DNA of 14,203 nt from positions 1 through 14,203 of the forward strand of contig CAWDRG010000016.1 in NCBI GenBank assembly GCA_963804645.1, in the 5' to 3' direction. Numbering within the stretch: the stretch's first letter is position 1; every line of letters starts with the position of its first letter. The translations under genes and the position numbers were made by a program. The notes beneath the pieces were generated by a model. The model saw nothing but the letters and a program-made list of their open reading frames with translations, was not told where the DNA came from and ran no database searches. This document shows positions 1 to 2,645 of the stretch, in pieces. Source of the DNA: an uncultured Bacillota bacterium. Its GTDB lineage: Bacteria > Sysuimicrobiota > Sysuimicrobiia > Sysuimicrobiales > Segetimicrobiaceae.

Positions 1-6
1 GATAAG

Positions 7-17
7 ATGAACGAGCC
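7..17 (+). repeat. Left subterminal inverted repeat of the IS
   Basis: ATGAACGAGCC is the exact reverse complement of 1501-1511. Confidence 0.9.
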
Positions 18-84
18 GGCGACCCGCGTAATACGTGGGTTGCCACCAGGACGGAGGCCTATCCACATACGGGGGTGCCGGCTC

Positions 85-1194: not shown

Positions 1195-1260
1195 AGTACC
1201 AGGAACAGATTCCGAGGATCGACGGACGTGTTCTGGACCTGGAGGCGAAGCAGCGGTCAG

Positions 1261-1410
1261 GAGCATCCTCGAGGGGTCTATGTGGCGGACAGGCTGACGT
1301 CTGTGCCGACCCACGTTCCTAGATTGAGGCAGCTCCCGACGAATCACAATCATGTGCGCTCTGCCCGCTTCGTGCGGGTAACCGCCGAATATCAGAGTGA
1401 TTCACCGTCG
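1261..1410 (+). ncRNA. Putative bridge RNA / seekRNA core (ends approximate)
   Basis: Hairpin 1: 1261-1270 pairs with 1326-1335 and 1281-1292 with 1301-1315, leaving a 10x10 internal loop. Hairpin 2: GAATCAC 1341-1347 pairs with GTGATTC 1397-1403 and 1362-1368 with 1374-1380. Loop sequence ATATCAGA 1389-1396 is identical to IS end 1510-1517. Confidence 0.8.
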
Positions 1411-1494
1411 CGAACGCTTCGCTTCCAGGACCCGAATACGCCGTCCATCCTCTGGGACGACGGAGGGCCGTTCGTGGCTTGACCTACACGGTAC

Positions 1495-1500
1495 TTGACA
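1495..1500 (+). promoter_or_regulatory. -35 box (TTGACA) of circle-junction promoter; partner -10 is TAAGAT at 3-8
   Basis: Consensus TTGACA next to the right IR. Joining the ends at the GA core gives TTGACA-17 nt-TAAGAT. Confidence 0.8.
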
Positions 1501-1511
1501 GGCTCGTTCAT
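1501..1511 (-). repeat. Right subterminal inverted repeat of the IS
   Basis: GGCTCGTTCAT is the exact reverse complement of 7-17. Confidence 0.9.
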
Positions 1512-1512
1512 A

Positions 1513-2106
1513 TCAGACCTCCAGCAGGTCCACCCCGTCGACCACGAACTGCGACCACGACTCGAGGCGCGGGTACGCGGCGCGGAGTTCCTCCCGGCCC
1601 GCAAACGCGCCGGCGAGTTTGGAGGTCTCGCGCACCCGGACGTCCTCCGACGGCAGATCGGCGAGGTACACCAGGCCGAAGTGGACGCGTCCCACCGCCT
1701 GGACATCGTCGTTCAGCGCGCCGATGGGCACGGCGTGCCACCCTGGGGGCAGCGCGACCTCTTCGGTGAGCTCCCGCTTCATCCCGGCGGCGACGCGGTC
1801 CCGCTCGGTGTCGCCGTCCTCCGGGTTGATGTGGCCGCCGAGACCGACCGACAGCTTGTCGCGGAGCCGCGCTTCCGATCCGCCCCGCGTGCGCTCCACG
1901 AGAAAGATCCGGTCGGCGTGGCGGAGGATGACGTATGGGATGATCTGCTTCAGGCTCGCGTCCTCCTCCACGCGGTCGCGCGGCGCGAAGAACGCGTGGG
2001 TGGCGATCGTGTCGAGGTACGCGGGCAGGCCGTCGCGCGAAAATCCATAGAACGCGCCGGAGGGAAAGAGGAGCGCGCGGGGCACCACCAGGACCTGTTC
2101 GGGCAT
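1513..2106 (-). CDS. Predicted NUDIX-family phosphoesterase (YmaB/COG4112-like), 197 aa
   Basis: EQVLVVPR, RDRVEEDASLKQIIPYV, RTRGGSEARL, SVGLGGHINPED, GMKRELTEEV, VGRVHFGLV and LESWSQ are typical of this family; ATG at 2106. Confidence 0.85.
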   Translation of the reverse strand: MPEQVLVVPRALLFPSGAFYGFSRDGLPAYLDTIATHAFFAPRDRVEEDASLKQIIPYVILRHADRIFLVERTRGGSEARLRDKLSVGLGGHINPEDGDTERDRVAAGMKRELTEEVALPPGWHAVPIGALNDDVQAVGRVHFGLVYLADLPSEDVRVRETSKLAGAFAGREELRAAYPRLESWSQFVVDGVDLLEV

Positions 2107-2153
2107 ACCGTCCAGTTTTTCCCGGGGGCGACGAAGTCCTGCGGCGGACCGCG

Positions 2154-2645
2154 TCAGACGACGCGGAACGCCGCGTCCACGAGGACGTCGTCCTCGGCGT
2201 GGATCTTGCCGAGCAGGATGCCCGGGTCGGATCCAAACAGATGCGGCAGGATGAGAGGGAGATCCCCCGGGATGGGGAGCGACGCCACGTCCTCGAGCGG
2301 CACCCACCGGAGCGCGCCCTCGTCGGTCGCCGCGGGGTCCGGGTCGCCGCTCGGCCGCTCGGCGGTGAACGCGAACAGGAGCCACTGCGCGTTCGCCGTG
2401 CGGCTGATCACCGTCAGCACCGCGCGCAGACGAGCCTCAGCGAGGCGCAGGCCCGTCTCTTCGTGCACCTCGCGCAGGCAGGCGTCGTACGGGTCCTCGC
2501 CCGGCTCGATCTTCCCGCCCGGCGCGTTGTACTTCCCTTGGTTGGGCGGGTTGCGGCGGAGGAGCAGCAGCACGCGGTCGCCGTCGCGGATGAAGCACAG
2601 CGTCCGAAGATGGATCGCAGGCGGTCCGGCGCTTTCCTGGGCCAT
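2154..2645 (-). CDS. NUDIX hydrolase, MutT/8-oxo-dGTP diphosphatase-like, about 163 aa
   Basis: Canonical Nudix box GGKIEPGEDPYDACLREVHEETGL, plus TLCFIRDGDRVLLL and EGALRWVP. The start codon is uncertain. Confidence 0.88.
   Translation of the reverse strand: MAQESAGPPAIHLRTLCFIRDGDRVLLLLRRNPPNQGKYNAPGGKIEPGEDPYDACLREVHEETGLRLAEARLRAVLTVISRTANAQWLLFAFTAERPSGDPDPAATDEGALRWVPLEDVASLPIPGDLPLILPHLFGSDPGILLGKIHAEDDVLVDAAFRVV

Follow-up and report, generated by a model that had tools for sequence, protein, structure and literature searches.

Does the non-coding DNA that follows the transposase gene of an IS110-family insertion sequence (IS) encode the RNA that guides the enzyme, and can the guides of that RNA be read against the ends and the target of the element? 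The question is raised by the left part of a 14,203-nt stretch (the window) from an uncultured Bacillota bacterium (assembly GCA_963804645.1, contig CAWDRG010000016.1, referred to as C16), in which a DEDD transposase gene is followed by a non-coding right end (RE). An earlier note, made from the letters alone, had proposed that this region folds into two consecutive stem/internal-loop/stem units, one loop holding a copy of the IS end and the other a match to the insertion site. A two-loop logic with a shared core is known from PMC11208160, and for the IS1111 family a non-coding region downstream of the gene has been described, in which the match to the top strand lies 5′ of that to the bottom strand, together with RNAs 154 and 82 nt long (PMC11187229). 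In the genome analyzed (5.3 Mb, 22 contigs, 68.6% G+C), the evidence favors a bridge/seek RNA gene at positions 1258-1410, with a probability of about 0.9. A second IS110-family element, referred to as B, interrupts this gene in the other copies of the host element.

A conserved two-loop structure downstream of the transposase gene

Folding of 1261-1410 with RNAfold returned both proposed units, 1261-1335 and 1337-1410, in a structure of -62.1 kcal/mol (z -3.2) that was equaled by only 1 of 200 shuffled sequences, and the larger region 1195-1525 gave a z value of -4.5. Homologous loci, 17 from species-representative genomes and 80 from metagenomes, were collected with transposases 36-100% identical to that of the window. 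A first covariance model, seeded with a hand-drawn structure for four well-aligned elements whose transposases share 42-46% identity with the window enzyme, matched exactly 1258-1410 in the window (54 bits, E 8e-12) and found matches in 77 of 98 sources (E <= 0.01), all of them on the transposase strand and directly 3′ of the gene. A second model made from these 77 sequences recovered 14 of the 21 sources without a first match (E <= 0.1), several of the others being contigs that end at the gene, and raised the score of the window copy to 93.6 bits. Across the taxonomic order of the window, the second model has matches in 17 of 94 genomes, a tally that counts this genome and G025, and the diverged relatives that were inspected all show the same pattern 3′ of the gene. 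An Rfam scan of positions 1-2200 (E <= 10) gave no match over 1195-1525 and two chance-level matches in the open reading frame (ORF).

Covariation was evaluated on an alignment of 75 distinct rows and 32 base pairs. Standard pairs fill 91.7% of the alignment cells, compared with 27-42% when the partners are slid by one to three columns, and 27 of the 32 pairs show compensatory changes on both sides; none of 500 column shuffles reached any of the five covariation measures. Two conserved U-G pairs (in 53 and 51 sequences) are compatible with the plus strand only. The two internal loops are conserved among the relatives, as in bridge RNAs and seekRNAs, and the correspondence of structure and loops to the IS end and the insertion site is far beyond chance.

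Two attempts at the alignment were set aside. From 11 orthologs aligned plainly with MAFFT, RNAalifold returned the stems of unit 1 (12 pairs) but not unit 2, because variable hairpins were misaligned. A seed of six sequences (A3) was dropped since two of its rows were out of register in unit 2.

Guides, core and target

The element occupies positions 2-1516 of the window, which is 1515 bp counting one copy of the core. Six copies, 99.9-100% identical, are present in the genome with AG on both sides of their ends: the left junction in the other copies reads ...CT-AG|ATAAGATG, the left element end after the core ...CT-AG|ATAAGATGAACGAGCC, and the right junction GGCTCGTTCATATC-AG|ACC(C/T). A shorter mobile unit, 28-1391, which is the block matched by BLAST in six places, was considered and rejected because blocks 1-34 and 1392-1519 flank the inserted DNA on the outside and two orthologs from other assemblies (L015, L035) have the uninterrupted arrangement of the window; the true element is longer.

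Both loops can be read against these ends (Table 1). In unit 1, both strands of the insertion site are represented in the target loop, with an overlap at the core: the reverse complement of AGGGGUCUA is TAG+ACCCCT, and the five right flanks in the genome follow AG|ACC(C/T)(C/T). In unit 2, guides of the donor loop match the two IS ends around that core, and the IS-end copy announced in the earlier note is the part AUAUCAGA of the left donor guide, 1389-1396, which equals the right IS end at 1510-1517. Unit 1 varies across the alignment in both of its loop strands, apart from the CUA that closes the 5′ strand and a UAGA within the 3′ strand, and the loop strands of unit 2 are near constant. This is the pattern predicted for a target-reading unit 1 and a unit 2 that reads the element's own ends.

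The correspondence was quantified over orthologs. Right ends were located in 64 of the 77 loci by looking downstream for the 7-mer found in the 3′ strand of unit 2, one mismatch being allowed, the 13 loci left out of the end table having a contig end, an interrupted RNA or no match; left ends were placed by the inverted repeat alone. The right target guide equals the right flank at positions +1 to +4 in 56, 53, 52, and 43 of 61 loci; for +5 and +6 the counts are 26 and 19. The mean match is 4.08 of 6 against a null of 1.65 +/- 0.15 that reached this value in 0 of 2000 permutations. The left target guide equals the left flank at -1 to -3 in 41, 38, and 29 of 43 loci (mean 3.09 of 5, null 1.62, again 0 of 2000 permutations). 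The insertion-site match claimed in the earlier note is thereby borne out over 61 and 43 loci, and with the covariation described above, the two-loop architecture and its 3′ non-coding location have support in dozens of orthologs.

The core itself had to be revised. The earlier note had named GA, an appearance that arises in the window because the left end and the right flank both begin with A. The base after the right AG varies between orthologs, and the target guide fits it in 56 of 61 loci; it therefore belongs to the flank, and the core, shifted leftward by one base, is AG (1515-1516). Right junctions carry AG in 55 of 64 cases, AA in 5, and GG in 4; in one ortholog (L036), AA is present at the left and right junctions and in each of the three core-reading guides.

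Two of the guides extend across the junctions. Beyond the core, the left target guide also matches the opening two bases of the left end (LE) in 26 of 43 loci (null 13.7), and the left donor guide into the first base of the right flank in 36 of 64 (null 17.5); neither fit was reached in 5000 permutations. The left target and left donor guide strands thus spell both product junctions.

In this genome, the five right flanks are ACCTCC, ACCCCA, ACCTCG, ACCCTA, and ACCCCG, and those on the left, four of which are known, have the endings GCT, CCT, GCT, and GCT. Set against the guide prediction CCU-AG-ACCCCU, positions -2, -1, and +1 to +3 always fit, +4 and +5 fit or form a G-T wobble, and +6 never fits. 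The predicted target, written CCTAGACCCC, would therefore be short, about 3+2+4 bp or CCT-AG-ACCY. On both strands of the genome, CTAGACC occurs 56 times against about 568 expected from base composition, and CTAGACCY occurs 26 times.

Closing stem and proposed mechanism

The two-loop core is enclosed by a long predicted stem of about 30-37 bp that covaries, P0. When 45 nt on either side of the model match were paired at 69 loci, cognate flanks gave a mean of -50.8 kcal/mol compared with -27.2 for non-cognate combinations, and 62 of the 69 loci fell below the 5th percentile of the non-cognate set. The stem has a median of 30 pairs (19-37), with G-U accounting for 139 of 2044 pairs, and its sequence varies between orthologs with complementarity kept. 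By strand, the stability is -50.8 vs. -51.6 kcal/mol, the plus strand being better in 30 of 69 loci; since P0 is equally stable on either strand, it is by itself no proof of RNA. P0 is likely a processing or stabilizing signal, for example for RNase III, among other grounds because no promoter-like site was found in positions 1-1700.

Under the mechanism proposed here, the RNA is probably cut from the transposase transcript with P0 (1214-1251/1416-1452) as the likely signal, unit 1 would serve as the target-binding loop and unit 2 as the donor-binding loop, and the RNA-loaded DEDD recombinase (85-1194) would recombine the RE-AG-LE junction of the excised circle with a CCT-AG-ACCY target. What is observed comprises the fold, conserved and covarying among relatives, and the correspondence of guides to flanks and ends. 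Production of the RNA, its binding by the recombinase, and catalysis would be expected by analogy with IS621, ISEc11, and ISPa11.

A second element inside the RNA gene

Element B, 1430-1490 bp long, lies on the opposite strand between the positions corresponding to 1391 and 1392 (AAUA|UCAGA) in all five other copies (with B at G000 C6:107740-109169, C19:114473-115902, C17:852862-854349, C21:2098-3521, and C21:1-549), which leaves the window copy as the sole uninterrupted one among the six. The insertion splits the donor loop and leaves the target loop (unit 1) untouched, and the second covariance model scores the five interrupted copies at 66.5 bits. The gene of B encodes a 401-aa IS110-family transposase and is preceded by a non-coding region of about 235 nt. 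The copies of B belong to three lineages with 75-82% nucleotide identity; the host parts around them are 99-100% identical.

The 5′ region of B can itself be read as a guide RNA. In it, UCUGAUAU and CGAAUAU lie on either side of a hairpin and together match the two strands of TCTGATATTCG over the insertion point; the surrounding region of the window, 1370-1412, includes CGAATATCAGA. A loose version of the guide test, in which any 7-mer on both strands within 42 nt counted, was uninformative, 270-300 of 2000 shuffles passing it. In the version that replaced it, both matches must cover the insertion point, and only 3-5 of 5000 shuffles of the B 5′ region gave both kinds of 7-mer over the core. 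The guide segments of B are conserved in all three lineages.

The same association recurs elsewhere. In another species of the genus (G070), a B element with 72% amino acid identity to B1 adjoins a truncated host RNA, and the B-in-host arrangement is also present in a metagenome-assembled genome (L016) and on a metagenome contig (L033). B-like transposases (E <= 1e-40) occur in 19 of the 94 genomes of the order, this genome and G025 again being counted. A BLAST search of the genome with B returned, beyond the inserted copies, one 150-nt fragment beside a 54%-identical relative on C19, and no full-length copy of the B lineage was found outside such a site. More distant relatives of B (L118-L123, L136, L143; 50-55% amino acid identity) share a common 5′ RNA scaffold, GGGCAGGCCG ... 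UGGCCGCCCCUGCGAC, and their guide segments differ from one another and match their own left flanks. As judged from these sequences, they would be a clear example of how an IS110-type subfamily is reprogrammed in nature.

Taken as a whole, B is somewhat more probably than not a dedicated parasite, with its own 5′ bridge RNA programmed for the DNA of the host's left donor guide (CGAATA|TCAGA, 11 bp). Such DNA would be a stable target because its drift is limited by the match to the right end of the host. B may disarm the host element or make the host depend on the intact window copy. Judged by titles and abstracts, the papers found on nested IS110 elements and bridge RNA included no report of an IS within the RNA gene of another.

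Alternative explanations and points against the RNA gene

Several observations count against a functional RNA gene at 1258-1410 and a working element around it. The RNA gene is interrupted in five of the six copies in the genome, and the left flank of the window copy is missing because its contig starts inside the left copy of the core. A Cys replaces the conserved Pro of the GLxP----SG motif in the window transposase. The alignment behind the figure of 91.7% standard pairs was fitted to the model, which favors the structure, and the slid controls carry the same bias. The left donor guide agrees with the right end perfectly in 46 of 64 loci and with one mismatch in 18, a match that is circular because the guide was used to locate the ends; the ends so located adjoin a conserved TTGA[CA] (59 of 64) and a repeat complementary to that of the left end, and they permitted three independent tests, on the right flanks, the left flanks, and the core. 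Among the four guides, the weakest case is the right donor guide, with a length of just 3-4 nt and three pairing bases that agree with G plus LE1-2 in 32 of 43 orthologs, modestly above the null mean of 24. Position -3 of the left flank fits the guide in one of the four genome copies. A scan of positions 1-1700 for promoters and terminators found no such site.

As to expression, contigs from RNA libraries (four metatranscriptome runs of one peat study) cover 84-262, 356-393, and 680-815 with 0-2 differences and, over the RNA region, 1144-1266, 1237-1333, and 1318-1519 with 0-1 differences, the last spanning 1391|1392 without an insert. These contigs carry neither strand nor ends and may stem from DNA carry-over, so they give a weak hint of expression of the element.

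The alternative that survives best, although it remains unlikely, is that unit 1 (about 1258-1336) is by itself a working seek RNA and that unit 2 is dispensable or serves excision or regulation. For ISEc11, an 82-nt RNA sufficed for movement of a mini-IS, at 42% compared with 15% for the 154-nt form (PMC11187229), lengths close to the 77-79 nt of unit 1 and the 153 nt of both units here, and a truncated target-loop RNA is reported to take part in a second pathway (10.1101/2025.10.25.684509). The five copies with a split unit 2 are, at different loci, still 99.9-100% identical to the intact one, as if still moving; the intact window copy could, however, provide the RNA in trans. Equating the 82-nt RNA of ISEc11 with unit 1 is moreover an assumption, and unit 2 equals unit 1 in conservation and covariation, with double changes in 12 of 15 pairs of helices 5-7. 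The 3′ loop strand of unit 2 repeats the right end of the element itself, and the last base of that strand tracks the target flank, which is hard to understand without a role in synapsis.

It is very improbable that the repeats and stems act as DNA, as recombinase sites or single-stranded hairpins, with RNA not involved. The copied IS end could act as a binding site within the element, and P0 is no less stable on the other strand; yet the conserved U-G wobbles of units 1 and 2 would be C-A mismatches there, in each loop one guide is complementary and the other identical to the DNA site, the signature of an RNA reading both strands, and the protein family is experimentally RNA-guided (PMC11208160, PMC11187229). 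An ordinary 3′ untranslated stabilizer or terminator, or a small ORF (1228-1482, 84 aa), is hardly credible even though 1195-1525 folds well (z -4.5) and the ORF is open in the window, as the terminator scan of 1-1700 was negative, the RNA lacks a conserved reading frame (each frame is open in 16-23 of 74 rows, and the lengths are not multiples of three), and the loop bases of the orthologs track flanks and ends.

Relation to known systems

By architecture, the element is IS1111-type in every respect tested. It has subterminal inverted repeats of 11 bp, within the 7-17 bp of that group, a long non-coding region 3′ of the transposase gene (RE 320 nt, LE 83 nt), and the same guide order, 1272-1280 being complementary and 1316-1324 identical to the top strand (PMC11187229). 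The seekRNAs of ISEc11, ISPa11, and ISKpn4 share with it the downstream RNA position, the subterminal repeats, and the overlapping matches at the insertion point, and the two-unit RNA of 153 nt compares with a long form of 154 nt (PMC11187229). The transposase, at 369 aa, exceeds the 330-350 stated for the IS1111 family (PMC11187229), and with 27% identity to that of IS4321 over 285 residues and 29% to that of the IS110-type element B, the protein is not clearly IS1111. Placement in the IS1111 group is therefore based on the architecture. Beside the IS4321 gene, the second covariance model found no match at E <= 1.

IS621 likewise has a target and a donor loop, each with two opposite-strand guides, and a 2-nt shared core (PMC11208160, PMC11208158). 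Its RNA, in contrast, lies in the left end upstream of the gene, its guide order is reversed, and its core is CT where AG is found here, although the present core read on the opposite strand would also be CT. The positions that cross the junctions, which adjoin a guide and fit the non-cognate DNA, resemble the "handshake" guides of IS621 (PMC11208158), with the difference that these bases extend the top-strand-pairing guides in IS621 and the bottom-strand-pairing guides here. Similarity to the IS621 protein is weak and confined to the C-terminal domain (E 1e-5).

The closest named element is ISEc45 (E. coli plasmid NZ_CP041001.1), with 44% full-length amino acid identity; this element stems from another phylum and has a higher A+T content than the window element. 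The second model matches just downstream of the ISEc45 gene (L113 2331-2459, 39.4 bits, E 1.3e-5) and, at 102.8 bits, a copy on an Azospirillum plasmid (46% identity). With the ISfinder-named ISEc45 matched by the model, the family cannot count as undescribed. ISEc45 is included in the data sets of both 2024 papers; no paper on its RNA was found, the matches listed being resistome surveys by title and abstract. The bridge RNA of ISCARN28 is among six drawn in Extended Data Fig. 10c of Durrant et al. (PMC11208160), and ISCARN28, which stands beside ISEc45 in the header order of the transposase matrix in the source data of Siddiquee et al. (PMC11187229), may belong to the same subfamily. P0 and the two-loop fold may already be drawn in Fig. 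6d, Extended Data Fig. 10c, or Supplementary Table 5 of Durrant.

Transposase, termini and neighboring insertions

The transposase combines an N-terminal DEDD/RuvC-like domain with a C-terminal Tnp domain (PF01548, E 3e-18; PF02371, E 7e-20), as in IS110-family DEDD RNA-guided transposases, and scores 237.9 bits against the NCBIfam model NF033542, "IS110 family RNA-guided transposase" (cut-off 140). The altered motif lies at residues 258-267 (positions 856-885), GLVCSENSSG compared with the family consensus GLVPSExSSG; the motif of IS1111-type enzymes is GL-P----S(t)G. An ORF of the metagenome contig L033 is 100% identical to the window transposase at the protein level. A sequence search of the PDB gave weak C-terminal matches to the transposases of IS621 (E 1e-5) and ISCro4.

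In a joined RE-AG-LE circle, TTGACA would stand 17 nt from TAAGAT, and the two could form a junction promoter, as read from the sequence. Junction promoters of this kind have been reported for these families.

Table 1. Features of the host element and its RNA gene in the window (positions of the 14,203-nt stretch).
Feature	Position	Strand	Remarks or basis
Core, left copy, its G	1..1	+	Contig starts here; window opening = GATAAGATG
Left end (LE), non-coding, 83 nt	2..84	+	Holds left subterminal inverted repeat and TAAGAT
TAAGAT, putative -10-like	3-8	+	Tentative assignment
Left subterminal inverted repeat ATGAACGAGCC, 11 bp	7-17	+	5 nt from core
GTAATAC	28..34	+	IS1380-family/MITE (miniature inverted-repeat transposable element) insertion site in three other copies; intact in window
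DEDD transposase/recombinase gene, 369 aa	85..1194	+	Pfam, NCBIfam
Right end (RE), non-coding, 320 nt, contains predicted RNA gene	1195..1514	+	Sequence, ORF list, copy ends
P0, 5′ strand	1214..1251	+	Predicted to pair with 1416-1452, -61.6 kcal/mol; also in minimum free energy structure of 1195-1525
Predicted two-loop bridge/seek RNA core, 153 nt	1258..1410	+	First model 54 bits, E 8e-12; second model 93.6 bits
Unit 1, predicted target-binding loop	1260..1336	+	GGAG/CUCC, CCUCG/UGAGG, UGUGG/CCACG stems; apical hairpin 1286-1310
Predicted right target guide AGGGGUCUA	1272..1280	+	Would pair with top strand T-AG-ACCCC(U)
Predicted left target guide UUCCUAGAU	1316..1324	+	Top-strand-like: CCU + core AG + first two LE bases AU
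Unit 2, predicted donor-binding loop	1337..1410	+	CGACG/CGUCG, AAUCAC/GUGAUU stems + short inner stem
Predicted right donor guide AAUCA	1348..1352	+	AUC would pair with core G + LE bases AT
Extra hairpin within donor loop	1359..1382	+	24-nt insert relative to model; window's clade only
Predicted left donor guide AAUAUCAGA	1388..1396	+	RE end ATATC + core AG + first right-flank base
Insertion point of element B in five other copies	1391..1392	.	Within left donor guide; uninterrupted in window
P0, 3′ strand	1416..1452	+	Predicted to pair with 1214-1251
TTGACA, putative -35 hexamer	1495..1500	+	Sequence
Right subterminal inverted repeat GGCUCGUUCAU, 11 bp	1501..1511	+	Complement of 7-17 repeat; 3 nt from core
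Core AG, right copy, element terminus	1515..1516	+	Flanks, ortholog ends, guides
Target right flank ACCTCC	1517..1522	+	Sequence

Other insertions were noted in the copies of the host element. At GTAATAC, three copies carry either an IS1380-family element (two tandem copies with a 1498-bp period and ends CTGAATCCGGCG...) or a MITE of 232 or 248 bp, with the heptamer on both sides (G000 C6:106144-106375, C19:112862-113109, C21:4886-7875); the two small inserts are 88% alike and in opposite orientation. The sixth copy (C21:550-1913 and 1914-1966) is without positions 1-27, begins at GTAATAC, and starts 53 bp past the right end of the neighboring copy, an arrangement that probably reflects nested elements. 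The window copy is inserted in the TAG stop codon of a minus-strand ORF, 1513..2385 (target CTAG|ACC), and its end restores a TGA stop, so that the protein is unchanged. CTAG, a rare word in this genome, is targeted by most orthologs too.

Implications

The locus would provide a complete natural RNA-guided recombinase system, as predicted from sequence, in an uncultured GC-rich soil or peat bacterium, with readable guides, defined ends, and a short target. The covariance model, with about 90 members including ISEc45, is useful for annotation. For engineering, the element is one further ortholog of a principle published since 2024. P0 may account for the release of the RNA from the transposase transcript, and the handshake-like positions, on the opposite guide strands from those of IS621, could be of specialist interest. 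A second RNA-guided IS homing into the guide RNA gene of the first would be, if true, a natural bridge system that targets another.

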